A DNA stretch of 43,096 nucleotides from sequence record PQ850627.1; one strand, 5' to 3'. This stretch comes from Escherichia phage SonjaBuckley_Bas74. A program made the translations under genes and the position numbers. A model generated the notes under the pieces. The model saw only the letters and a program-made list of their open reading frames with translations, had not been told where the DNA came from and did no database searches. Positions 1,823 through 41,866 of this stretch are shown here, in pieces. How positions within the stretch are numbered: position 1 is the first letter of the stretch; each line of letters opens with the position of its first letter.

Positions 1823-3304
1823 ATGTTAACTATGAACGGTCAGAATCAGGGTGTTAAGACAAAACACCGGGAATGGCTGCATCACTTCGATAAATGGCAG
1901 AAGGTGCGCCACGCGCTGGAAGGTGACCTTATCCGCTATCTGCGCAACGTCGGGAAGAACGAGCCTGACCCTACCTACGCGGCACAGCGCCAGGAAGAAT
2001 ATGAGAATGGTGCTATCTGCTACAACTTCACTAAACGTACCCTTGCGGGGATGGTGGGGTCGGTGATGCGCAAAGACCCTGAACAGATTATCCCGCCTGA
2101 ACTGGAGTACCTGTTACGTAATGCAGACGGTTCAGGTGTCGGTCTGTGGCAGCACGCGCAGGACACGCTGATGGAGATTGACTCGGTAGGCCGTGGCGGG
2201 TTGCTGGTGGACGCGCCGGAGACAGCTGCGGCAACGGCAGCCGAACAGAACGCGGGGTTACTAAACCCGGTCATTGCATTCTACACTGCTGAGAACATCA
2301 TCAACTGGCGACTGACCCGCATCGGCTCAGTGAACCGTGTGACGATGGTCGTGTTACGTGAGGTGTGGGAATACTCAGAACCAAGTGCAGAGTTCGAAAC
2401 AAAGTTCGGTGAACAATACCGCGTTCTCGATTTGATTGACGGGCGCTACCGCCAGCGAATCTATCGCTTCGATGCCGAAGGTGGCGCACAGGATGAAGTA
2501 ATCGAAATCTTCCCGGAACTCGGCGAACAGTTGCGCGGTAAAATCCCGTTCACGTTCATTGGCGCAAGCAACAACGACGCCACTATAGACGATGCGCCTT
2601 TACTGCCGTTAGCTGAGCTAAATATAGGACACTTCAGAAATTCGGCCGATGTGGAAGAGGCCAGCTTTATAGTAGGTCAACCGACACTGTTCATTGCCCC
2701 CGGCGAGAACATGAGCATGGAGCAGTGGAAAGAAGCCAACCCACACGGCATACGCATGGGGTCGCGTTCAGGCCACAACATCGGCTCCGGCGGAAATGCG
2801 TTTCTGGTTCAGGCGGCGGAAACTAACCTCGCCAAACAGAATATGCTGGATAAAGAGAATCAGGCCATCCAGATTGGCGCGCAGCTTATCACCCCGACGC
2901 AGCAAATCACCGCGGAATCGGCCCGCCTGCAACGCGGCGCCGACACGTCAGTCATGGCAACAATAGCACGTAATGTAAGCATGGCGTATACCGATGCGTT
3001 GCGCTGGGTTGCGGGTATGCTTGGGCTTAGTGAAGATACTGAGATTGAGTTCAAGCTGAATATGGAATTCTTCCTGCAACCTATGACAGCTCAGGACCGC
3101 GCTCAGTGGATGGCGGATATTAACGCTGGCCTGCTACCCGCCACCGCTTACTATGCTGCGTTGCGCAAGGCAGGTGTGACTGACTGGACAGATGAGGACA
3201 TTCAGAACGCTATTGAAGACGCACCTCTGCCGTTGGGTTCTGTTGCTCAGGTAGCGGGAGAGATTCCGCAGTCGGCGCAGCAACAGGACACCACTCAGCA
3301 GTAA
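1823..3304 (+). CDS. portal protein
   Basis: 493 aa ORF with AAGAGGA SD directly after terminase; followed by intrinsic terminator; size and position typical of portal. Confidence 0.65.
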   Translation: MLTMNGQNQGVKTKHREWLHHFDKWQKVRHALEGDLIRYLRNVGKNEPDPTYAAQRQEEYENGAICYNFTKRTLAGMVGSVMRKDPEQIIPPELEYLLRNADGSGVGLWQHAQDTLMEIDSVGRGGLLVDAPETAAATAAEQNAGLLNPVIAFYTAENIINWRLTRIGSVNRVTMVVLREVWEYSEPSAEFETKFGEQYRVLDLIDGRYRQRIYRFDAEGGAQDEVIEIFPELGEQLRGKIPFTFIGASNNDATIDDAPLLPLAELNIGHFRNSADVEEASFIVGQPTLFIAPGENMSMEQWKEANPHGIRMGSRSGHNIGSGGNAFLVQAAETNLAKQNMLDKENQAIQIGAQLITPTQQITAESARLQRGADTSVMATIARNVSMAYTDALRWVAGMLGLSEDTEIEFKLNMEFFLQPMTAQDRAQWMADINAGLLPATAYYAALRKAGVTDWTDEDIQNAIEDAPLPLGSVAQVAGEIPQSAQQQDTTQQ

Positions 3305-3314
3305 GTTCACCTAT

Positions 3315-3336
3315 AGCCCCGAAAGGGGCTTTCTTA
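3315..3336 (+). terminator. intrinsic terminator after portal gene
   Basis: AGCCCC-GAAA-GGGGCT hairpin followed by TTCTT. Confidence 0.6.
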
Positions 3337-3373
3337 TAGTATGCTATTAACTTTAGCGCCACAGGGTTGATCT

Positions 3374-4417
3374 ATGAGCTTACTTACATCCCTAATCAGC
3401 CATCAGATATGGCTGCAACGCACCGCATCCGGTGAGGTGAAAGACCTCACGCCGTTCATTCAGGAGATAAGGGATGAAATCAAACGGCAGGTGCTGTTAT
3501 TCGGTGACGACGGTCGCAGCACTGCGCGACTGAATAAACTGTTACGCGACCTGGAAGAAGCACTAACCGGTATTACGGGTGACTGGCAAACAAAGCTAAC
3601 AGACGACCTTAAGGAACTGGCGGCGTACGAGGCTGAGTGGAACGTAAAGACACTGACCGCCAACGTAGACGCGGAATTTGTTACGCCTACCGCTGAGCAG
3701 GTATGGGCCGCTGCCGAGTTTCAACCATTATCATTGAGCGACAAGCCCGTTGATTTCACCAAGCTGATGTCTGGATGGGGCGAAACGGAAGTAGCACGTC
3801 TTGTAACTGGAGTTAAGATGGGCTTTGTGCAAGGTCAAACCACACGGCAGATTGTTAAGAATGTTGTTGGCGCTGGTGGACTAGCCGACATCTCAGAACG
3901 TAACGCGACTACGGTAATCCGCACCGCGCTGTCCCACGTATCCAACGAGGCCCGTAACGAGACGTACCGCCAGAACGACGACATCATCGAGAAGTACGAG
4001 TGGGTGTCAACGCTTGACAGCCGCACCAGTACGATTTGCAGGGTCAGAGACGGGATGACGTGGGAAATTGGTAAGGGGCCGATGCCCCCAGCCCATCCGA
4101 ACTGCCGGTCGTGCACGGCTCCGGTAATCAGTTCCGAGTTCGACTTCCTCGATAAAGGCGCAAAACGCGCGGCTAAAGGCGCGGAAGGTGGCACTCAGGT
4201 AAGCGCAGACACCACTTACTACGAGTTCCTTAAACAACAACCGGCGTGGTTTCAGGACCAGGCGCTCGGCCCGGTGCGAGGTAAGATTTTCCGTAACAGC
4301 GGTATATCGCCGGAAGAGTTTCGCGTAATATCTGTAGATGGTTTCGGGAATCCGCTCACGCTTAAGCAGATGGCGGAACTCGATAAACGTGTTGCTGATT
4401 ATCTGAAAGGGGAATAA
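3374..4417 (+). CDS. head morphogenesis protein (SPP1 gp7 / Mu F-like)
   Basis: 347 aa; C-terminal HPNCRSC motif characteristic of this family; position after portal. Confidence 0.65.
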   Translation: MSLLTSLISHQIWLQRTASGEVKDLTPFIQEIRDEIKRQVLLFGDDGRSTARLNKLLRDLEEALTGITGDWQTKLTDDLKELAAYEAEWNVKTLTANVDAEFVTPTAEQVWAAAEFQPLSLSDKPVDFTKLMSGWGETEVARLVTGVKMGFVQGQTTRQIVKNVVGAGGLADISERNATTVIRTALSHVSNEARNETYRQNDDIIEKYEWVSTLDSRTSTICRVRDGMTWEIGKGPMPPAHPNCRSCTAPVISSEFDFLDKGAKRAAKGAEGGTQVSADTTYYEFLKQQPAWFQDQALGPVRGKIFRNSGISPEEFRVISVDGFGNPLTLKQMAELDKRVADYLKGE

Positions 4418-5485: not shown

Positions 5486-5872
5486 ATGAATCTTAAAGCA
5501 ACTGTCGTAGCAGGAGCATGTTTCATCATCCTGGTTTACGCACACGGCATCTACCAGTATCGCAGCGGATGGAACGAAGGCCGGGCTAATCTCGTTTCGC
5601 AGCAACAGCAGAAAGCACAGGCTGAGTTAGCGAAGAAAACACAACGGCAGCAGCAGGATGAATCGAAGGCCGCCGCCGCTGACAACGAAGGCAAGACGAA
5701 ATCAGAGGTGATTACCCGTGAAGTCGTTAAGTACATTAAAACGCCTGGTCGCAGCGTGTGCACTTTTGACCCTGAGCGCGTGCAGCTCAAGTCCCGCGCC
5801 GTCGCCAACGCCAATTCCATCCCCGGATACGACGATGATGCAGCCGCCGTGCAAACTGGCGCAGCCAAGTAG
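5486..5872 (+). CDS. i-spanin (Rz-like)
   Basis: N-terminal TMD ATVVAGACFIILVYAHGIY followed by Q/K/E-rich coiled-coil region; contains an overlapping +1 frame lipoprotein ORF. Confidence 0.65.
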   Translation: MNLKATVVAGACFIILVYAHGIYQYRSGWNEGRANLVSQQQQKAQAELAKKTQRQQQDESKAAAADNEGKTKSEVITREVVKYIKTPGRSVCTFDPERVQLKSRAVANANSIPGYDDDAAAVQTGAAK

Positions 5873-5981
5873 CGACGCTGATGAGGATTTGGCCGTCGAC
5901 GTTCAGAATGCTGAATGCGTACGGCAACTGAGACTGAAAGTGTTCATGTTGCAGGATTACGTGAGGAATATTCTGGAATAG
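5718..5981 (+). CDS. o-spanin (Rz1-like outer membrane lipoprotein)
   Basis: +1 frame relative to the i-spanin, overlapping its 3' half; signal peptide with lipobox LSAC; proline-rich mature part SSSPAPSPTPIPSP. Confidence 0.65.
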   Translation: MKSLSTLKRLVAACALLTLSACSSSPAPSPTPIPSPDTTMMQPPCKLAQPSSDADEDLAVDVQNAECVRQLRLKVFMLQDYVRNILE

Positions 5982-6036
5982 TTGCCTTGCATGTTGGAAT
6001 AATTTATTCTTGACATGTAAATCCGGGTGGCCCGGA
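5965..6036 (+). promoter_or_regulatory. phased GGAATA repeats, TTGACA hexamer and TCCGGG-N3-CCCGGA palindrome upstream of scaffold gene (candidate late promoter / activator site)
   Basis: GGAATA at 5965, 5975 and 5996; 12-mer ATGTTGGAATAA shared with 5208-5219; TTGACA at 6010-6015 without a recognisable -10. Confidence 0.35.
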
Positions 6037-13441: not shown

Positions 13442-13633
13442 TCACTTCTCGTTAACATTCGAGTTGCAGGCCCAGATTAAAATAAATACCCACGGCAGCA
13501 GAACCCAACCAAGAAACAGATTAGCCATGAATATCGCTAATTTCGCTTTATGGTTGCGGAAGTATGCAACCAAGAAAGGTGCGAAATAGGCGAGCAGTGC
13601 AAACAGAATTAAGGAAACTGGTAAACTTGACAT
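13442..13633 (-). CDS. superinfection immunity-like small membrane protein
   Basis: Likely start at second ATG (AAGGGG SD); sequence YFAPFLVAYFRNHKAKLAIFMANLFLGWVLLPWVFILIWA resembles the Imm superinfection-immunity family pattern; two predicted TMDs. Confidence 0.55.
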   Translation of the reverse strand: MSSLPVSLILFALLAYFAPFLVAYFRNHKAKLAIFMANLFLGWVLLPWVFILIWACNSNVNEK

Positions 13634-24045: not shown

Positions 24046-25466
24046 TTCTTACCTCGTCTCTTCATGTAGTTAAGCAACTCTTCCTGTACCGATTTCTTCT
24101 CGTCGGTACGCGCGGCAACAACCTCGTCCAGCGTGTCTTTAGCGACTATGTGATAAAGGAACACCGGGCGCTCGTGCCCAGCTTGTTTCTGACGGACCGG
24201 GCCTATACGCTCGACAACCTGCAAATAGTGCTCAAGGTTCCAGCCTTGTGAGATGAATGCCAGATGATGTCCGCCGTCTTGTAAATTCAAACCATGGCCC
24301 GCTGACGCAGGATGTACGCATAAGATTTCTACTTCACCGCGGTTCCACGCTTCCATCTGCTTATTACCCCTGACACCTTTGGCAAAGGCCTGTGCTTGTG
24401 GGAATCGCTTAAGGATGCGCTCCAGTTCGTGCTTGAACTGATAGGCCACCAGTAACGGTGCCCCCTGTAACTCCTCAACAATGGACTCGAGCGCATCAAG
24501 TTTCGTGTCGTGCACTTTCTCCCATTCTTTGGTTGATTCGCCATCTGGCCCCGATACATACACGGCACCGGAGGCAATCTGTAGGCACTTCGACGTCTTC
24601 GCCGCAGCGTTAGCCGCTTCAACTTCTCCGCTTTCCAGTTCCGCGAATAACTTCTCCTCCATATCGATGTACGCCTGACGTGCTTTCTTCGGCAGGTCGA
24701 TTTCAACCGGCACAATAATCGGCGCTTCACACCCGAACCACTCGGCGGCGTCAATCGTGAGACTAATGTCCTTCATCTTCTGGTGAATTTCATTATCCGC
24801 ACCCGGGCGTGCGTGGTATTCACGGGCCATCGCAGATTTCCCTTTCTGTACCGAGTTAAACCAGCGGTCGGTGAATGCTGTGTACGATGACCCCAGGCGC
24901 TCGCCTGCGTCGATAAACCAGTTCTGCCCCCACAAGTCCTTGAGGCCGTTTGGTGACGGCGTGCCAGTCAGGTTAATGAAACGCTTAACTTTGCCAAATG
25001 CCACTTTACTAAGCGCCTTTGCCCTCTTGCTGCCGCCTGAACGGCTGCGGAATGACTTCAGTTTCGTGCTTTCATCGGCAACGATAACGGTAAAAGGCCA
25101 GTCGTCTTTGCCGTAGTAGTCAATCAACCACTCTATTACCTCATAGTTCGTGCACACCACGTTAGCGTCCGACTCCAGCGCCGCGATGCGGCGCTTCTCT
25201 GAACCGGTCGCGTCTACGACACGCAGACATGGGAAATTCCACTTAGTTTGTTCCGCCGGCCATGTGCCTGATGCAACGCGCAACGGGGCGAGGATTAACA
25301 CGCGGTCCTCTTCTGTAAGCTGCCCGTTGCGGAACAGTCGGTTTAATGTCCACAGTACGCTGCCAGTCTTCCCGGCGCCCATGCTCGCCCAAATATTACA
25401 GCGATGGTGCCGCAACATGAACGAAGTCATTAGCTTCTGGTATTCGCGCCTTTGAAACTTACTCAT
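24042..25466 (-). CDS. SNF2-like superfamily 2 DNA helicase
   Basis: Walker A GAGKTG, motif II VIVADESTKLK, motif III LTGTPSPNGL. Confidence 0.75.
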   Translation of the reverse strand: MSKFQRREYQKLMTSFMLRHHRCNIWASMGAGKTGSVLWTLNRLFRNGQLTEEDRVLILAPLRVASGTWPAEQTKWNFPCLRVVDATGSEKRRIAALESDANVVCTNYEVIEWLIDYYGKDDWPFTVIVADESTKLKSFRSRSGGSKRAKALSKVAFGKVKRFINLTGTPSPNGLKDLWGQNWFIDAGERLGSSYTAFTDRWFNSVQKGKSAMAREYHARPGADNEIHQKMKDISLTIDAAEWFGCEAPIIVPVEIDLPKKARQAYIDMEEKLFAELESGEVEAANAAAKTSKCLQIASGAVYVSGPDGESTKEWEKVHDTKLDALESIVEELQGAPLLVAYQFKHELERILKRFPQAQAFAKGVRGNKQMEAWNRGEVEILCVHPASAGHGLNLQDGGHHLAFISQGWNLEHYLQVVERIGPVRQKQAGHERPVFLYHIVAKDTLDEVVAARTDEKKSVQEELLNYMKRRGKK

Positions 25467-26253
25467 TTACGGCCCCTATGAACGCCTTTATAAATTCAGC
25501 GGCTACTTGCGGGACGATAGCATTGCCGTAACCGCGCAATCGTCCCACTCTGGCGGGTACCCCATTAGCCAGCGGGAATGCGCCGGGTTCAACTGGCCTG
25601 AATTTTCCATCCCGGCATCCGAGCCAGTCAGCATCTGACCAGAACCCGTTAGGCGGATTGGCTGTGTCAGAGATGCCTCTGTTTGCAGATTGTGGCCCCC
25701 GTTCCTGCCCTGATGGCCTGCTCCCGCCGAGTTGTTCGCACACGGTGTTGGCCAGTTGCTGCGCTCCGAAGAACAATCGATTCCTTTTGTGCGGTGCGCC
25801 GACGCTACAAGCTGGGAGTACGGCAAACCCGACGGCGTAGTCTTCTCTTTCCAGGTGAGTTTGTAAATCGCACATCCACGATTTTGCAATTGCTGCCGCA
25901 ACCTGCTCCCCAAAGATGACTGGAGGGTGGCACTCGCTGATGAGGTCGAGGAGCACAGGTGCGAGGTGTCTCTGGTCGAACTGTCCGAGTTGCTTTCCTG
26001 CCGTGCTAAACGGTTGGCAAGGCGGACTTCCCGTCCATATAGGCGTATCTTCAGAAACTCCCGCAAGTCTGAGCGCGAGAGGCCAGCCGCCGATACCCGC
26101 GAAAAAATGACACTGGGTGAACCCGTCAAGGTCTTCTGGCTTAACTTCGGTAATGCTTCTTTCATCTACAACTCCAAAAGGTATGTGACCCTGTTTTATC
26201 AACTCACGCAGCCACGCGGCTGCGCCTTTATCCCATTCGTTGTAATAGTTCAT
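25459..26253 (-). CDS. DNA (cytosine-5)-methyltransferase, short form
   Basis: FAGIGG (motif I), PPCQPFS (catalytic PCQ motif IV), [16 protein letters not shown]; only 264 aa. Confidence 0.6.
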
Positions 26254-26441
26254 TTCGCCACCAGAACTAACTCTTTACGCCCGAACGCCGTAACGTTACC
26301 GGTTACGTCTTCAATAACCAGTTTACCGTTCGACTCGACGAACACCGTATCAACGGCAACAGGACGACGGGTCTTAACGTTGAAAATCATGTCGCCTGGT
26401 ACGATGTCACGTGCTGGTTTGCGGTCATATTCGTGTTTCAT
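26250..26441 (-). CDS. hypothetical protein (63 aa)
   Basis: ATG with AAGGAA SD; preceded by TTGACA-N17-TATAGT promoter; ATGA coupling to methyltransferase. Confidence 0.5.
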   Translation of the reverse strand: MKHEYDRKPARDIVPGDMIFNVKTRRPVAVDTVFVESNGKLVIEDVTGNVTAFGRKELVLVAK

Positions 26442-26757
26442 TTCTAAATTCCTTATATTGTTGGGGTATGTGCTTACTATAATAGTCTGCTATTAGGGTG
26501 TCAATCTGTTTTATCGAACCAACGACAAAAACATTTGCGCCACGTTTACGTATACGCTCGTGTTCCCGTAGCTGGTGCGGGTCTGGCTTAGTGTTTTCGT
26601 CTTTCTTCACCTCGACGAACCAGACGATGCCGCCGGGTAGAATTGCCAGCAGGTCAGGAGCGCCTGAACGTCCTTCGTAGGAAAGTTTACGAACGAGGCC
26701 ACCAATGGCCTCGAATCGCTCTTTTGCGTATTTCTGGATGCGGCCCTCTTTAGTCAT
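26425..26757 (-). CDS. VRR-NUC domain nuclease
   Basis: GAPDLLAIL...VWFVEVKK...HQLREHERIRKRGANVFVV matches the VRR-NUC pattern (PD-(D/E)XK-type core). Confidence 0.6.
   Translation of the reverse strand: MTKEGRIQKYAKERFEAIGGLVRKLSYEGRSGAPDLLAILPGGIVWFVEVKKDENTKPDPHQLREHERIRKRGANVFVVGSIKQIDTLIADYYSKHIPQQYKEFRNETRI
26476..26504 (-). promoter_or_regulatory. promoter TTGACA-N17-TATAGT (internal to 3' end of VRR-NUC gene)
   Basis: Minus-strand reading TTGACACCCTAATAGCAGACTATTATAGT; perfect -35, near-consensus -10, 17-bp spacer. Confidence 0.5.
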
Positions 26758-26906
26758 GACCGCAGCATCCAGGTAAGGAAAACCCAGCCTAGAATGGCAA
26801 CACCGGCAAACTGAAAGAACAGGCCGTAACAGAACATAGCAGCTATTCCCGCACCGAGTAACAGTGCGAGCATGGTTACTATGGTCCTAAATACAAACAT
26901 TGTCAT
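26754..26906 (-). CDS. small hydrophobic membrane protein (50 aa)
   Basis: Uninterrupted frame; stop overlaps VRR-NUC start (ATGA); sequence almost entirely hydrophobic. Confidence 0.4.
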   Translation of the reverse strand: MTMFVFRTIVTMLALLLGAGIAAMFCYGLFFQFAGVAILGWVFLTWMLRS

Positions 26907-26988
26907 AATACGCACCCCTCACGTTTCGTATGCTCAATCCCGCAGCGCGGGCAGATTCGGCAGTCTTCTTCATAAAACCAGTAAATTT

Positions 26989-27120
26989 TCATTCCAGCAC
27001 CCACATATAAATTGCGATGAACATGCCCAATATGGCAACCATCATGCCGTATTGTCCCTCGTGACAGTAGACACCGGCGGCAAATCCCGCCAGTACCGCG
27101 ATAATCAGTTTACTTGGCAT
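26989..27120 (-). CDS. small hydrophobic membrane protein (43 aa)
   Basis: ATG with AAGGAGA SD; two hydrophobic segments. Confidence 0.4.
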   Translation of the reverse strand: MPSKLIIAVLAGFAAGVYCHEGQYGMMVAILGMFIAIYMWVLE

Positions 27121-27805
27121 CTCTACATTCTCCTTCAGGCCACCTATTAGGAAAAGACGGTATATGTGAAACTTCTCTCGCCGCTTTTATTCTTTTAATG
27201 GTGGGACCTATCTCCGTAACCATTTCAATGAATGTAAACCGGTGTCCTCTGGTAAGATTACATGTCTGACAACAAGAAACGCAGTTAGATACTATGTGCC
27301 CGCTTGTATTATCTATGCGGTCTACCCCGACTTTTGTAGTGCTTCCGCAATAATGGCATGGCTGTGATATTAGTTTAATAACGCTTTCCAGTGTTAAATC
27401 GCAGATAAGCCCTTTTCCTGAATCTGCTCTTTTGTATCCTAACAAAAGCGCGTACGCCCGCGTCCTTTGGTCCTTATTCACCAGTTCCCTGCGTTGCTTG
27501 TTGAGACACTCCCGGCAATCTTTCCTGATATGAGAGCCATTACTTTTATTTCCTTTCCTGAAGTTTTCCTCTGTTAAAGGTTTTACCTCCCCACACTTTC
27601 TGCATTTAACAGGCTTCCCAGTGAAAACATACCAAGGGCTTTCTCGTCTGGATTTACCTTGTAATTTAAGTTTTTCGTCATACTTTTCCTTCCTGTTAGC
27701 ATTTACACACTCTTTACACCAGCGTTGCAGCCCGAGGCGCGTTGACTTTGAAAAATACTCTGTAGTCGCCGGTTTATCTTCGCCGCATCTTGAACACTTT
27801 TTCAT
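27110..27805 (-). CDS. HNH homing-type endonuclease
   Basis: Cys pairs CSRCG, CKEC, CRKCG, CREC plus CHYCG...GVDRIDN...H core; ATG at 27805 with GGAG SD (ORF track TTG start at 27817); inserted between polymerase terminator and nuclease genes. Confidence 0.7.
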   Translation of the reverse strand: MKKCSRCGEDKPATTEYFSKSTRLGLQRWCKECVNANRKEKYDEKLKLQGKSRRESPWYVFTGKPVKCRKCGEVKPLTEENFRKGNKSNGSHIRKDCRECLNKQRRELVNKDQRTRAYALLLGYKRADSGKGLICDLTLESVIKLISQPCHYCGSTTKVGVDRIDNTSGHIVSNCVSCCQTCNLTRGHRFTFIEMVTEIGPTIKRIKAAREVSHIPSFPNRWPEGECRDAK

Positions 27806-27815
27806 TAATAACTCC

Positions 27816-27850
27816 AAAAAAAAATACCGACATAGCCATTATATCGGTAT
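27816..27850 (-). terminator. intrinsic terminator after DNA polymerase gene (minus strand)
   Basis: ATACCGA/TCGGTAT stem followed on the minus strand by a run of nine T. Confidence 0.7.
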
Positions 27851-27882
27851 TTACATTTTCTACAACGTATTTCCTAAATCTA

Positions 27883-30063
27883 CTACTTGGCGTATCTGTA
27901 CATTTCGCTACCTTCTGCTACAAGAGGGAACCCCTCCGCCCATTCCGGTAATTCACACATCAACCGCTCAAGCTCTGCAACATTGTATTCCGGTAAATCA
28001 GGTGTCTCGCAGATAATCTCATCGTGTACGTGAAGTACAATCGGGTAGCCGTTTGCTTCTACGTTCAGCAGGGCATTAGCCAGCAAATCACGGCACAATG
28101 CCTGAGTGCAGTTTTCCACCAGTTTACCCGAGTAGGTGTACTGGAACCCCCACTGACGGGTTAGCTGATTTTCGCCCTGGTACTTAATGCGCACGTTAGT
28201 AGACACTTTTCCATCTTCGTCTGTTTCTTTCGACACGCTCAACCCGACGCCCGGATAAGACATAACGCGACCCGACGGCAACGTCATGCGCAACCACCAG
28301 CCGGCGACTTTGTTGCCGTTGTTGTCTGTCTCTACGTTGCGCGAAAACTTAACCCCCCTAGGCCCCGCGGTGAACTCTTTACCTGGATTGCGGATAGCGG
28401 CCATAGCTGCGTCTTCAATATCTCGCCAGAAAGCTACTGTTTCAGGGTGTGACTCTCGCCACATACGCTTGATAGCGTCACAGGTACGCCACACTTTCTT
28501 ATCAAGAATATACGATGGTCGGTCATCCTTCTCCCCGGGTCGCGGCGGTCGCTTGGCTTCCTGAATACGTGCCCATTCATAGCCGCGTGCAGTAGCCGCC
28601 CAGATGTGGTCCGGGAAAGTACCGTCCATTGTTTTTGACATATCAACAAGGTCAAGTCCGAGGTTCTTAGCAAACTGAACGAAAGCGCCAACACCACCAG
28701 CGTAGCCGAGGCCAAGCTCGCAGGCTTTACCAATCTGGCGCAAGTCTTTGCGTTCCTTCTTAATGTAATCCGGCTCCATGCCGAACATCTTACCCGCGGT
28801 TACACAGTAAATGTCCAGCCCGGCGCGGAACGTATCTAGCGCGGTTTCTTCGCCTGCCAGCCACGCAAGCCCCCGACCTTCAACGTTAGAGTAATCGGCG
28901 ACGACAAACTTTTTTCCGGCTTCCGGGATAATGCAGCTACGCACCGTCGATGCCGTTAGCTTAGCGACATCGAAACGGCGATGCGCGCGGCCCTTAAGTA
29001 ACGCTGAAATACCTTTATCCAGTTCATCATCGTGATAGTACCCACGCGCGAGGTTCTGCGGCTGAAATCCTTTACCGGCAAATCGTAATGTACGCTTGGC
29101 TCCGCCGTACTGAATGCAACCACGACGGCGGTCGTCCGACGAGCGCCCTAACAGCAGCGGGTTATATTTCGTTGACGCTGTGGACGCGGCCCCGAGGCGC
29201 ATTTCGATAATCGTGCGTGCGTCGTCCGGTAAATCATCATCCGCCAACAGGTCGTTAAGCGTAGACTTCTGCGCGTTGTGGATGCGGTGCGCTGGTGCAA
29301 GTTCACGCAGAATCGGCAGGAAGTCTTTACCAGTAAGCGAGCCGCCGTATTTGCGCTGTGCTTCTTCCTGTAGCTGGGCCTTGTGTTTTTCCACGGCTTC
29401 AATCGCGGCTTCCGCCAGCGTCACATCAACCTTAAACCCACGGTCGTTAATCAACTGGTCCAGTTCCAGTACACGGTCTTCGAACTCGGAGTTACCCCAA
29501 CGCGGCAGCTTATGGAAGACTTCACGCATCGCAGTGATGTCGCTCACGGCGTACCTGATGAACATCGCCCACTCGTCAGGGTGAGTTTCTGCGGTGTAGC
29601 GGCGGATTTTGTAGTTCTTCGGCGTCGGTTTAGAGAAACGCTTAATCAGAGCCTTGCCGCGTTTATCTTTCGCGTTGTCTGCAGACACGCCCAGCACTTC
29701 GCACAGCGCATCAAGAGAACCCGGCAGCGCGTGACGGAACGCCCAAATCATAGTATCAATGGTGTTACTTACCGGAATATCAAAGTCCCAGCAGTGTTTC
29801 ATGATTAGGCGATCGAAAAGTCCACCGTTGTGCCACACCATCTTGATGCGGCTGTTGGGCTTAACAAGGCGGCGCAGTGCGCGGTGTAAATCCCCCGGCA
29901 TGTCGCTGCCGTCGGTGCAATCCCATACCCGCACAGGTTCGTCGTCAAAAGCATATGTACAGATAAGCACTTCGGTTGACGGGTGTTCGGCGTAAGCGTA
30001 AGAACCGACTTTCTTCAAATCGGCTTCTGAGAATGTTTCAAAGTCTAAGAACAGGTAACTCAT
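27883..30063 (-). CDS. DNA polymerase I family (family A) with N-terminal 3'-5' exonuclease domain
   Basis: N-terminal FLDFETFS exonuclease motif; C-terminal RQIGKACELGLGYAGG and VLHVHDEIICE polymerase motifs; 726 aa. Confidence 0.85.
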   Translation of the reverse strand: MSYLFLDFETFSEADLKKVGSYAYAEHPSTEVLICTYAFDDEPVRVWDCTDGSDMPGDLHRALRRLVKPNSRIKMVWHNGGLFDRLIMKHCWDFDIPVSNTIDTMIWAFRHALPGSLDALCEVLGVSADNAKDKRGKALIKRFSKPTPKNYKIRRYTAETHPDEWAMFIRYAVSDITAMREVFHKLPRWGNSEFEDRVLELDQLINDRGFKVDVTLAEAAIEAVEKHKAQLQEEAQRKYGGSLTGKDFLPILRELAPAHRIHNAQKSTLNDLLADDDLPDDARTIIEMRLGAASTASTKYNPLLLGRSSDDRRRGCIQYGGAKRTLRFAGKGFQPQNLARGYYHDDELDKGISALLKGRAHRRFDVAKLTASTVRSCIIPEAGKKFVVADYSNVEGRGLAWLAGEETALDTFRAGLDIYCVTAGKMFGMEPDYIKKERKDLRQIGKACELGLGYAGGVGAFVQFAKNLGLDLVDMSKTMDGTFPDHIWAATARGYEWARIQEAKRPPRPGEKDDRPSYILDKKVWRTCDAIKRMWRESHPETVAFWRDIEDAAMAAIRNPGKEFTAGPRGVKFSRNVETDNNGNKVAGWWLRMTLPSGRVMSYPGVGLSVSKETDEDGKVSTNVRIKYQGENQLTRQWGFQYTYSGKLVENCTQALCRDLLANALLNVEANGYPIVLHVHDEIICETPDLPEYNVAELERLMCELPEWAEGFPLVAEGSEMYRYAK

Positions 30064-30808: not shown

Positions 30809-30837
30809 ACTATAATAGCTAACTATTCAGGTGTCAA
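30809..30837 (-). promoter_or_regulatory. promoter TTGACA-N17-TATAGT upstream of SSB gene
   Basis: Minus-strand reading TTGACACCTGAATAGTTAGCTATTATAGT; spacer contains AATAG-N5-CTATT inverted repeat. Confidence 0.55.
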
Positions 30838-33108: not shown

Positions 33109-33137
33109 ACTATAATAGCGAACTATTCACATGTCAA
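33109..33137 (-). promoter_or_regulatory. promoter TTGACA-N17-TATAGT for minus-strand early operon
   Basis: Minus-strand reading TTGACATGTGAATAGTTCGCTATTATAGT; differs at three positions from the 30809-30837 copy. Confidence 0.55.
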
Positions 33138-40422: not shown

Positions 40423-40908
40423 ATGAGAAACATTAGCAACAATGGCATCAAATTCACCGCCGCGTTCGAGGGATTCCGCGGAACTGCGTATCGTGCTACG
40501 CCAAATGAGAAGTACCTGACTATTGGGTACGGTCATTATGGGCCAGACGTAACGCCAGGCAAGACCATCACCCCGGGACAAGGCCTCCTGTTACTGAATC
40601 GTGATATGGCTAAGGCTGTAGCTGCGGTTGACGCAGCAGCACACCATTCATTGACACAGGCACAGTTCGATGCAGTGTGCGACCTGGTATACAACGCAGG
40701 TGCTGGTGTGATTGCTGCTACTACCGGCACGGGTAAGGCACTGCGTTCTGGTGATATTGCAACGCTGCGGGCTAAGCTGACACTGTTCATCAACCAGAAC
40801 GGCAGACCGTTACTTGGTCTGCGCCGCCGTACTGCCGGTCGTCTGGCGCTGTTCGACGGTAAACCGTGGCAAGAGGCAGAGGCTATCGGGCGCGCGGTGA
40901 AAGGTTGA
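40423..40908 (+). CDS. endolysin, T4-type lysozyme (GH24-like)
   Basis: FEGFRGTAY...TIGYGH and QFDAVCDLVYNAG match the catalytic region pattern of phage lysozymes; followed by strong intrinsic terminator. Confidence 0.75.
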   Translation: MRNISNNGIKFTAAFEGFRGTAYRATPNEKYLTIGYGHYGPDVTPGKTITPGQGLLLLNRDMAKAVAAVDAAAHHSLTQAQFDAVCDLVYNAGAGVIAATTGTGKALRSGDIATLRAKLTLFINQNGRPLLGLRRRTAGRLALFDGKPWQEAEAIGRAVKG

Positions 40909-40974
40909 CACCTGAGACTAATCCGACGATACTTAAATCACCTCCTGTTCCATACCTCTGCTCTCCAGTTTTAT

Positions 40975-41003
40975 CCCGGCCCTGACCCAGCCGGGATTTT
41001 TTT
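40975..41003 (+). terminator. intrinsic terminator after endolysin
   Basis: CCCGGC-N9-GCCGGG followed by ATTTTTTT. Confidence 0.7.
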
Positions 41004-41025
41004 ATCTATTTTCTGCAATGACTAG

Positions 41026-41054
41026 TTGACTATTACCTACGACCCTATTATATT
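41026..41054 (+). promoter_or_regulatory. promoter TTGACT-N17-TATATA after endolysin terminator
   Basis: TTGACTATTACCTACGACCCTATTATATA followed by leader CAACGAGAACGGAG and ATG at 41088. Confidence 0.45.
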
Positions 41055-41087
41055 TACTCCATCGACAACGAGAACGGAGTAGAGAAG

Positions 41088-41336
41088 ATGAGTAACGTAC
41101 AGACAATCGCAATAACCGAGGAACTTGAAGCCAAATGTATCGCATGGACTATGGGTAATGACCCGGTTGCTATGCGTAAATTTCCAATGAAAATCACAGA
41201 TACCGAAGCATTCAAAGACGCACAACTGATGGCGCGTATCGCCGTTAGTAACCTGAGCCGCAATATCCCTGCGGATGCGTTCTGGTTCGCGGCTATGCAG
41301 ACACTGAAAGCAGCTTATGCAGGAGAGAAGAAATGA
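41088..41336 (+). CDS. hypothetical protein (82 aa)
   Basis: ATG with GGAGTAGAGAAG leader downstream of TTGACT-N17-TATATA promoter. Confidence 0.5.
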   Translation: MSNVQTIAITEELEAKCIAWTMGNDPVAMRKFPMKITDTEAFKDAQLMARIAVSNLSRNIPADAFWFAAMQTLKAAYAGEKK

Positions 41337-41530
41337 AAGTTAAAGCCGCTAAAATTCTCTGGTTAGCCGCCCTTGACTATGTCACAGAGGGTAAAGTGTA
41401 TGATGTATACAACCCGACAGCTACTGGTTTCGGTTATATAGACTCCGACGACGACTGCCATATTTTCATAGACTTTGGTAACGATGACGGTGATGGTTTC
41501 CACGGCGTTAAATGGGAGGTTGTAGAATGA
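41333..41530 (+). CDS. hypothetical acidic protein (65 aa)
   Basis: ATGA coupling to upstream gene. Confidence 0.45.
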   Translation: MKVKAAKILWLAALDYVTEGKVYDVYNPTATGFGYIDSDDDCHIFIDFGNDDGDGFHGVKWEVVE

Positions 41531-41688
41531 GCGAACAAGGTCAAGTAAGCCAACCATTACGAGTAGGCCGTAAGGTGAGTCACACCCCGTTCCCGACACG
41601 CGAGGAACTGATGAAACGTAACAGTTTCCCTGGGCCGGACAAGAACAAGTATCTCAACCGCATGTGGGGAGAGCGTAAAAATGACTGA
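41527..41688 (+). CDS. hypothetical protein (53 aa)
   Basis: ATGA coupling; uninterrupted frame; under ORF-track cutoff. Confidence 0.35.
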   Translation: MSEQGQVSQPLRVGRKVSHTPFPTREELMKRNSFPGPDKNKYLNRMWGERKND

Positions 41689-41866
41689 CCGTGAATATGA
41701 AAAGATGATGGTAGAGGCCGTTAACGGCGGCGTAGACATTAGCCACGTGATGTGCGTCCTGAATAATAAAATCGCGGTAGCCGAGCAAATGGTGGAGTCG
41801 CTTTATGAGGCGCGCCGCGAACTGATTAACCGCTTCAACCTGAACAAAGGTGACACCAATGCATAA
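41681..41866 (+). CDS. hypothetical protein (61 aa)
   Basis: ATG overlapping upstream gene by 8 nt. Confidence 0.45.
   Translation: MTDREYEKMMVEAVNGGVDISHVMCVLNNKIAVAEQMVESLYEARRELINRFNLNKGDTNA

Follow-up and report, generated by a model that had tools for sequence, protein, structure and literature searches.

Two probable hydrophobic micro-protein genes around a conserved 29-codon gene between the polymerase and VRR-NUC genes of Guernseyvirinae phages

Results

Gene order and start signals at the locus

The window analysed here is the whole 43,096-nt stretch of record PQ850627.1, from Escherichia phage SonjaBuckley_Bas74. A 1.5-kb query around the micro-ORFs shares about 99.9% identity with Escherichia phage GertrudWoker_Bas73 (PQ850603, Kagunavirus) and matches 439 GenBank phage records, nearly all from Guernseyvirinae (Kagunavirus phages of E. 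coli and Jersey-like phages of Salmonella).

An earlier note on this sequence had described two uninterrupted ORFs of 43 and 50 aa, wedged between an HNH gene and a VRR-NUC gene. Both were found as described, on the minus strand (Table 1), and are called here p43 (translation MPSKLIIAVLAGFAAGVYCHEGQYGMMVAILGMFIAIYMWVLE) and p50 (translation MTMFVFRTIVTMLALLLGAGIAAMFCYGLFFQFAGVAILGWVFLTWMLRS). The note was right about their position but missed a third gene, p29 (translation MKIYWFYEEDCRICPRCGIEHTKREGCVL, 29 codons), which fills the 83-nt gap between them. Since p29 also overlaps both of its neighbours by ATGA, p50 is coupled to p29 and not to p43. The proposal that the frames are translationally coupled or preceded by a Shine-Dalgarno (SD) sequence is supported. 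The description of the two ORFs as unannotated holds only against a 60-aa ORF cut-off, because all three genes are listed as hypothetical proteins in Bas73 and belong to PHROG families.

Table 1. Positions in the window of the micro-gene cluster, its surroundings and other features cited in the text
Feature	Position	Strand	Remarks
Sigma-70-like promoter, TTGACA-17-TATAGT	30837..30809	minus	consensus scan; upstream of the ssDNA-binding protein gene
DNA polymerase gene (pol)	30063..27883	minus	
8-nt repeat GCCAAGTA, first copy	27891..27884		flanks the HNH cassette
HNH/endonuclease VII-like gene	27817 or 27805..27110	minus	27805 is the ATG in the Bas73 annotation
SD of p43, AAGGAGA	27135..27129	minus	8 nt before the p43 ATG; inside the HNH 3' end
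p43	27120..26989	minus	43-aa hydrophobic ORF; homologue of Bas73_0041; phrog_10404
8-nt repeat, second copy	27118..27111		flanks the HNH cassette
p43 stop/p29 ATG overlap, ATGA	26992..26989		
p29	26992..26903	minus	29-codon CCHC zinc-knuckle-like ORF; Bas73_0040; phrog_38225
SD-like GAGGGG of p50	26920..26915	minus	8 nt before the p50 ATG; inside the p29 coding sequence
p29 TGA/p50 start overlap, ATGA	26906..26903		
p50	26906..26754	minus	50-aa hydrophobic ORF; homologue of Bas73_0039; phrog_14925
p50 stop/VRR-NUC ATG overlap, ATGA	26757..26754		
VRR-NUC/Holliday-junction-resolvase gene	26757..26425	minus	ORF and PHROG matches; downstream boundary
Second strong promoter-like site	26504..26476	minus	consensus scan; within the VRR-NUC 3' end
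63-aa ORF (p63)	26441..26250	minus	
C5 DNA methyltransferase gene	26253..25459	minus	helicase gene next in order
+1-frame ORF in the methyltransferase gene	26165..25503		220 codons
Antisense 92-aa ORF	26872..27150	plus	rejected candidate
Imm_superinfect (PF14373) gene	13633..13445		7.5e-13, 48.6 bits (cut-off 27.9)

The AAGGAGA that had been named as the SD of the 43-aa ORF was confirmed. It is carried by the HNH gene, whose 3' end reaches 11 nt into p43, and among relatives the SD before p43 comes from whatever gene is upstream: GCGGAG from the 3' end of pol, AAGGAGA from the window HNH (HNH-235), or GGAGG from a different HNH of 171 aa (HNH-171, locus L046). The GAGGGG upstream of p50 is kept in relatives, and the 4-nt ATGA start/stop overlaps are kept in all variants of the region.

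The three micro-genes are set in a DNA-replication operon with the genes for ssDNA-binding protein, polymerase, VRR-NUC, methyltransferase and helicase. The early-region setting assumed in the earlier note was therefore not borne out, as this is not a classic early host-takeover region. The promoter-like site upstream of the ssDNA-binding protein gene is the nearest strong one upstream of the micro-ORFs, and its extended consensus is common to two further sites. No minus-strand terminator-like site was detected by consensus scan within or between the three micro-ORFs and VRR-NUC. With such a promoter-like site upstream and no terminator-like site, the micro-genes would most simply be co-transcribed with the replication genes, and this promoter is the likely source of a transcript that carries ssb, pol, HNH, p43, p29, p50 and VRR-NUC. 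An Rfam scan of 25500-28500 gave no match above noise.

The neighbouring methyltransferase gene has a peculiarity of its own. It holds a 220-codon ORF in the +1 frame, which matches its own PHROG families (phrog_1008, 8e-53) and in some records is annotated in place of, or beside, the methyltransferase. The +1 frame is open across 220-355 codons in five very divergent phage genes, with 13-20 stops in the +2 frame, and an open +1 frame was reproduced in 0 of 1000 synonymous-resampling simulations. Moreover, variability by codon position is flat inside the overlap and normal outside it. This ORF has the appearance of a long overlapping gene of ancient origin, or of an isoform that depends on frameshifting.

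Selection on the small reading frames

Selection was estimated by the Nei-Gojobori method on 50 Guernseyvirinae loci from IMG/VR plus phage K1G. The dN/dS ratio was 0.21 for p43 (39 distinct sequences), 0.19 for p50 (21) and 0.06 for p29 (44), compared with 0.07-0.13 for the neighbours p63, VRR-NUC and the polymerase C-terminus. Shifted frames of the same DNA gave 0.9-3.2, and for p43 and p50 0.9-2.1. No internal stop was present in any of these distinct homologues of p43, p50 and p29. The earlier note had proposed disruption of the frames in close relatives as grounds for discarding them; instead they are intact and under purifying selection. These comparisons indicate that selection acts on p43 and p50 at the level of the peptide.

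Two other readings of the same DNA were rejected: the antisense 92-aa ORF does not stay open in 35 of 49 relatives, and an ORF in another frame of the same strand (MKKT...) is cut short both in several relatives and in the window itself. Taken together, the open frames, the dN/dS values, the conservation of SD and ATGA signals and the broken antisense ORF make translation very likely, and p43 and p50 are very probably real genes.

Predicted structure and membrane location

All six frames of the window together contain 153 ORFs of 38-60 aa, with a mean GRAVY of -0.13 (sd 0.60); the two highest values, about 1.58-1.64 and 1.30, belong to the pair p43 and p50. This bears out the earlier description of near-wholly hydrophobic proteins with one or two membrane helices. 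The best 15-17-residue windows on the Hessa scale reach -2.3 and -0.8 kcal/mol in p43 and -1.8 and -0.5 kcal/mol in p50, values compatible with bilayer spans. From composition and models together, it is highly probable that both proteins are located in a membrane.

The AlphaFold2 model of p43, built from an alignment of 59 sequences, has helices at residues 2-20 and 23-42 (pLDDT 90.5, pTM 0.64), and that of p50 is one continuous helix from 2 to 49 (pLDDT 90); since both alignments are shallow (Neff about 1.5), the models mainly reflect helical propensity. The first helix of p43 shows a small-xxx-small face (A8-x3-G12-x3-G16) and is nearly invariant from L10 to H20, followed by a conserved polar turn, HEGQYG. 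Variability along helix 2 has a helical periodicity whose level was reached by only 101 of 5000 shuffles. p50 hardly varies at residues 10-31, the polar residue at position 32 differs among homologues (K/Q/N/E/R), and R49 is conserved. The predicted topology of p50 is either a hairpin or a single span plus an interfacial helix, and the first helix of p43 could be a cleaved signal peptide with an A-A-G site. A lipoprotein or secreted peptide with an essential cysteine was discarded: the lipobox [LVI][ASTVI][GAS]C is absent, the cysteine contexts being G-V-Y-C in p43 (Tyr at -1) and A-M-F-C in p50, and several homologues of p43 have R or Y in place of C19.

Homology searches

Full-length PHROG matches (1e-22 to 1e-32) place the three proteins in phrog_10404 (p43, 8e-32, positions 1-43 of 43), phrog_14925 (p50, 2.7e-28, positions 1-50 of 50) and phrog_38225 (p29, 2.5e-22). 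These families have no functional annotation, so membership explains nothing on mechanism. When p43, p29, p50 and the other occupants of the slots were scanned against Pfam, NCBIfam and PHROG, uncharacterised PHROGs were the only matches, and sub-threshold matches to EMC6, PufX and CcoS were set aside as composition noise.

A search of 5.8 billion proteins with p43 and p50 found only relatives at 69% identity or more, on contigs of 40-45 kb, and a p43 profile run against 1.84 billion representatives retrieved its own family and low-complexity noise. PDB sequence searches gave no match below E 0.2, and Foldseek with the p43 model gave none below E 1, only generic transmembrane hairpins. The two proteins are mutually unrelated by hhalign, and a literature search found no publication on them.

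Distribution and architecture of the slots

By tblastn against 50,697 GenBank phage records, p43 was found in 223 (102/102 Escherichia, 11/11 Kagunavirus and 106/324 Salmonella phages) and p50 in 120, with no homologue of either outside Guernseyvirinae. Among the 50 IMG/VR loci, 43 have p43 and 22 have p50. All four combinations of presence and absence occur in this set, so p43 and p50 are independent of each other. Both are very probably accessory or dispensable, judging from this distribution. As p43 is lost in about half of the relatives and p50 in about three quarters, their benefit would be conditional at most.

In phages without p43 the DNA between two TGATTAT copies, located at p43 codons 5-7 and at the p43-stop/p29-start overlap, has been cleanly deleted; this leaves MLSKLII joined in frame to the body of p29. 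The p50 cassette is ORF-precise, with an ATGA overlap at each end, and phages without it have p29 coupled directly to VRR-NUC by the same ATGA. Its slot can hold other occupants: a single-TM peptide of 23 or 25 aa (L043; L028 and L052), a soluble protein of 64 aa that contains Cys (phrog_25645; p50 may be present beside it or absent), an HNH endonuclease of 168 aa (L015, L024) or the remnant of a decayed HNH gene (L037).

HNH genes have inserted at these very slots in the window, L021, L046, L015 and L024. The window HNH (phrog_1035, 7.6e-30) lies between pol and p43 and forms the upstream boundary of the cluster. It is included in the match coverage of only 3 of the 439 records, its cassette lies between two copies of an 8-nt repeat (Table 1), and homology with HNH-less relatives restarts near 27120-27125. 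By this comparison the gene is mobile. Its mobility and the slot variants together define the anatomy of the region as a core p29 with an exchangeable slot on each side, open to micro-genes or homing endonucleases.

p29 is the universally and truly conserved element of the cluster, as far as its distribution indicates. It was found in all 50 IMG/VR loci and in 444 GenBank records, essentially all relatives, and is kept where both p43 and p50 are lost. Its conserved pattern is C14-x2-C17-x3-H21-x5-C27, with EED and TKREGC invariant. Against PDB sequences nothing was found below E 0.2, and resemblances to zinc-ribbon knuckles were non-significant. Many GenBank records carry no annotation for this 29-aa zinc-knuckle gene.

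Discussion

Our best explanation, which we hold tentatively and with slightly less than even confidence, is that p43 and p50 are genuine, lineage-restricted and non-essential inner-membrane accessory micro-proteins of Guernseyvirinae. They would be transcribed with the DNA-replication operon and translated by SD-assisted initiation together with ATGA termination-reinitiation, in the order pol/HNH, p43, p29, p50 and VRR-NUC. p43 would form a two-helix hairpin with both ends probably in the cytoplasm, and p50 a single hydrophobic helix, long or kinked, whose first half hardly varies. Both may enter the membrane by Sec/YidC-type insertion, after which their conserved helix faces could dock on a host or phage membrane protein, or self-associate. 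The result may be a non-lethal change of envelope physiology in the replication phase, of use in host manipulation or inter-phage competition; lethal pores are probably not formed.

A role as non-lethal modulator of a membrane protein, or in competition, is possible and is favoured because the proteins would be made while the phage still depends on an energised cell and because phages that have lost them stay viable. AcrZ, MgtS and MgrB are bacterial small membrane-protein regulators of at most 50 aa that consist essentially of a TM helix and bind larger membrane proteins. p43 and p50 resemble them in size and as near-pure predicted TM helices, and the binding of a larger membrane protein is also the mode of action that we propose here. 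Unlike these regulators, p43 and p50 are phage-encoded, confined to one phage subfamily and without sequence relationship to them.

Superinfection exclusion in the strict sense of T4 Imm or P22 SieA, in which inner-membrane p43 and/or p50 block DNA entry of a secondary phage, is an unlikely alternative. The earlier note had suggested a role in host takeover or membrane-level exclusion, a plausible guess of which this is the narrow form. Like T4 Imm and other members of PF14373, p43 and p50 are small, phage-encoded, non-essential and predicted to lie in the inner membrane, with about two hydrophobic helices, and would be made before lysis, from mid-infection onward. They are shorter (43 and 50 aa, whereas T4 Imm has 83 aa) and lack sequence or profile similarity: neither matches PF14373 even at E <= 1, and hhalign gives a probability below 1% against the Imm-family protein of the window itself. 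Their presence or absence differs among close relatives, as would be expected of inter-phage competition genes, and the exclusion proteins T4 Imm and P22 SieA are also inner-membrane proteins (PMC11436027). However, a true Imm_superinfect gene is already present elsewhere in the window (Table 1), which makes such a role for p43 and p50 less needed.

A wider version of the competition idea has a small chance of being right. Here the pol-VRR-NUC junction would be a two-slot exchange site for ATGA-delimited micro-genes, whose hydrophobic occupants would counter membrane-associated host defences or rival phages and would be swapped by co-conversion with homing endonucleases.

It is equally improbable that p43 and p50 are membrane-active host shut-off toxins, depolarising peptides comparable to Hok or TisB. 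Pore-forming peptides typically have such a size, extreme hydrophobicity and small-residue motifs. However, type I toxins (Hok, TisB, Ldr, Ibs) are stand-alone, antisense-repressed genes, whereas p43 and p50 lie inside an operon, ATGA-coupled to the gene on either side, with no antisense-RNA architecture. They do not match the family profiles of these toxins, NCBIfam and Pfam gave no toxin match, and the Rfam scan of the region was likewise negative. Moreover, depolarisation in the replication phase would reduce the ATP supply, and the two genes are dispensable.

The peptides themselves might be irrelevant, either as translational-coupling spacers or as hitch-hikers co-converted with neighbouring homing endonucleases. 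The slots are indeed HNH insertion sites, including that of the decayed HNH, and both genes are often lost. We consider this reading improbable in view of the dN/dS of about 0.2, the near-invariant p50 helix and the helical periodicity of p43, all of which argue for selection at the amino-acid level. In addition, a spacer is unnecessary, since phages without p50 couple p29 to VRR-NUC by the same ATGA.

Very little weight can be given to lysis timing by holin-, pinholin- or antiholin-like factors: the glycine-zipper-like motifs on two short hydrophobic helices are reminiscent of pinholin transmembrane domains, and the Met-Thr-Met start of p50 (Met-Lys-Met in some relatives) recalls dual-start holins, but a complete lysis cassette of two holins, endolysin and spanins lies at least 13 kb off (in Bas73 at 40615-41764 and 5509-6004, with the micro-ORFs at 27162-27528), and many relatives lack p43 or p50 with no lysis defect reported. 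As in pinholin S21 and class II holins, size is small and the TM helices carry Gly/Ala/Ser zipper motifs; unlike them, p43 and p50 have no charged C-terminal domain or tail (they end in ...WVLE and ...MLRS) and would be expressed with the replication genes, at a time when holes would abort infection. The region has a single 'holin' label, in phage SGP007. It was discarded as a mis-annotation, because it sits on the 63-aa neighbour, which is unrelated, and the record is clearly wrong in its annotations.

Just as doubtful is a membrane tether, by which p43 and p50 would anchor the polymerase/VRR-NUC machinery, perhaps via the p29 zinc knuckle. phi29 p16.7 and p1 are membrane organisers of phage DNA replication with soluble DNA- or protein-binding domains; p43 and p50 are likewise predicted membrane proteins encoded among replication genes, closely coupled in the pol-VRR-NUC operon, but they are almost wholly hydrophobic and have no soluble domain able to bind DNA or protein. 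The persistence of p29 where both are lost, together with the four combinations of presence and absence, speaks against an obligate partnership. In a distant phage group (L054-L060), an ORF of 69 aa with two TM segments immediately precedes VRR-NUC and is coupled to it by ATGA, which would fit a tether; GenBank phages gave no match to this ORF, so its position may be due to chance.

On present evidence, the accessory membrane proteins p43 and p50 reveal no new mechanism and are best filed as uncharacterised members of a broad, well-known class of small phage membrane proteins. Small hydrophobic proteins of this kind are abundant in phages, almost never characterised and often dropped by annotation pipelines. 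If the exchange-site reading were true, the hydrophobic slot occupants would form a class of phage micro-proteins for anti-defence or competition that has not been described before. The presence or absence of p43 and of p50 and the alternative slot peptides form an allelic series that occurs naturally among cultivable E. coli phages (BASEL collection), in which phenotype tests would be easy. The case also illustrates how translational coupling survives the gain and loss of cassettes and homing endonucleases.

A reading frame nested in the methyltransferase gene

The C5-cytosine methyltransferase gene harbors in its +1 frame an open reading frame of 220 codons (Table), which is assigned to PHROGs of its own, phrog_1008 (8e-53) and 31772, and which matched 245 phage records from diverse hosts by tblastn. 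In five very divergent homologues, from Kagunavirus, Klebsiella phage Salado, Pseudomonas PMG1, Burkholderia BcepC6B and Rhodobacter RcPacific, the +1 frame is free of stops across 220-355 codons, whereas the +2 frame contains 13-20. When codons were resampled synonymously, none of 1000 replicates was free of stops. Variability among codon positions is flat where the two frames overlap, and the normal third-position excess is found beyond the overlap. GenBank records differ in annotating the methyltransferase (frame A), the +1 frame (frame B, 'Mte8-like') or both. The nested frame is a candidate for an ancient, long same-strand overlapping gene or for a frameshift isoform.

Table. Features and their positions
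Feature	Position	Strand	Match or remark
C5-cytosine methyltransferase gene	25459..26253	-	PF00145, phrog_363
220-codon ORF nested in it, +1 frame	25503..26165	-	
63-aa two-TM protein	13445..13633 (alternative ATG 13648)	-	Pfam Imm_superinfect (PF14373), 7.5e-13
Promoter-like site 1	33109..33137	-	11/12 to sigma-70 consensus
Promoter-like site 2	30809..30837	-	11/12 to sigma-70 consensus
Promoter-like site 3	26476..26504	-	11/12 to sigma-70 consensus; within VRR-NUC 3' end
Terminator-like hairpin	27822..27852	-	13-bp stem then T run; RNA fold z-score -3.4
8-nt direct repeat, both flanks of HNH cassette	27884..27891 and 27111..27118	-	GCCAAGTA
p29, 29-aa CCHC zinc-knuckle-like micro-protein	26903..26992	-	C14-x2-C17-x3-H21-x5-C27
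69-aa two-TM ORF and ~34-aa TM ORF (distant high-GC group, coordinates of its loci)	about 2795..3004 and 3310..3412		

The micro-ORF region and its signals

Insertion of the HNH cassette duplicated the overlap between the pol stop and the start of p43, one of the hydrophobic micro-proteins; therefore pol and p43 are both intact, and the HNH ORF ends at the same TAA, 11 nt within p43. The mobile cassette carries the terminator-like hairpin, with the pol stop on one side and the HNH start on the other, and this hairpin could lessen the read-through that reaches HNH and the micro-genes. With a dN/dS of 0.06, p29 is the best-conserved DNA in this region; it was found in 50 out of 50 IMG/VR loci and in 444 GenBank records; no annotated feature covers it in 14 of 40 GenBank records sampled at even spacing.

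The three promoter-like sites are near-identical (TTGACA-N4-AATAG-N4-CTATTATAGT), the third lying upstream of the 63-aa ORF that neighbors the methyltransferase gene. Each contains an AATAG/CTATT inverted repeat, which may serve as an operator.

In a distant high-GC phage group (loci L054-L057, L059 and L060; VRR-NUC 44% identical), the 69-aa two-TM ORF is located directly 5' of VRR-NUC and ATGA-coupled to it, and the ~34-aa TM ORF comes after VRR-NUC. The 69-aa protein had no match among GenBank phages.

A variable accessory locus and annotation

The Imm_superinfect protein shares 97% identity with a protein of phage P AB-2017 named 'superinfection immunity protein'. Since the related phage Bas73 has a different gene in this slot, encoding a 108-aa product with a signal-peptide-like N-terminus, the slot is a further variable accessory locus.

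In Salmonella phage SGP007 (PV654122, locus L074) the 63-aa neighbor of the methyltransferase gene is named 'holin protein' and the methyltransferase itself 'portal protein'. Both labels are plainly wrong, and they could misdirect naming by similarity.
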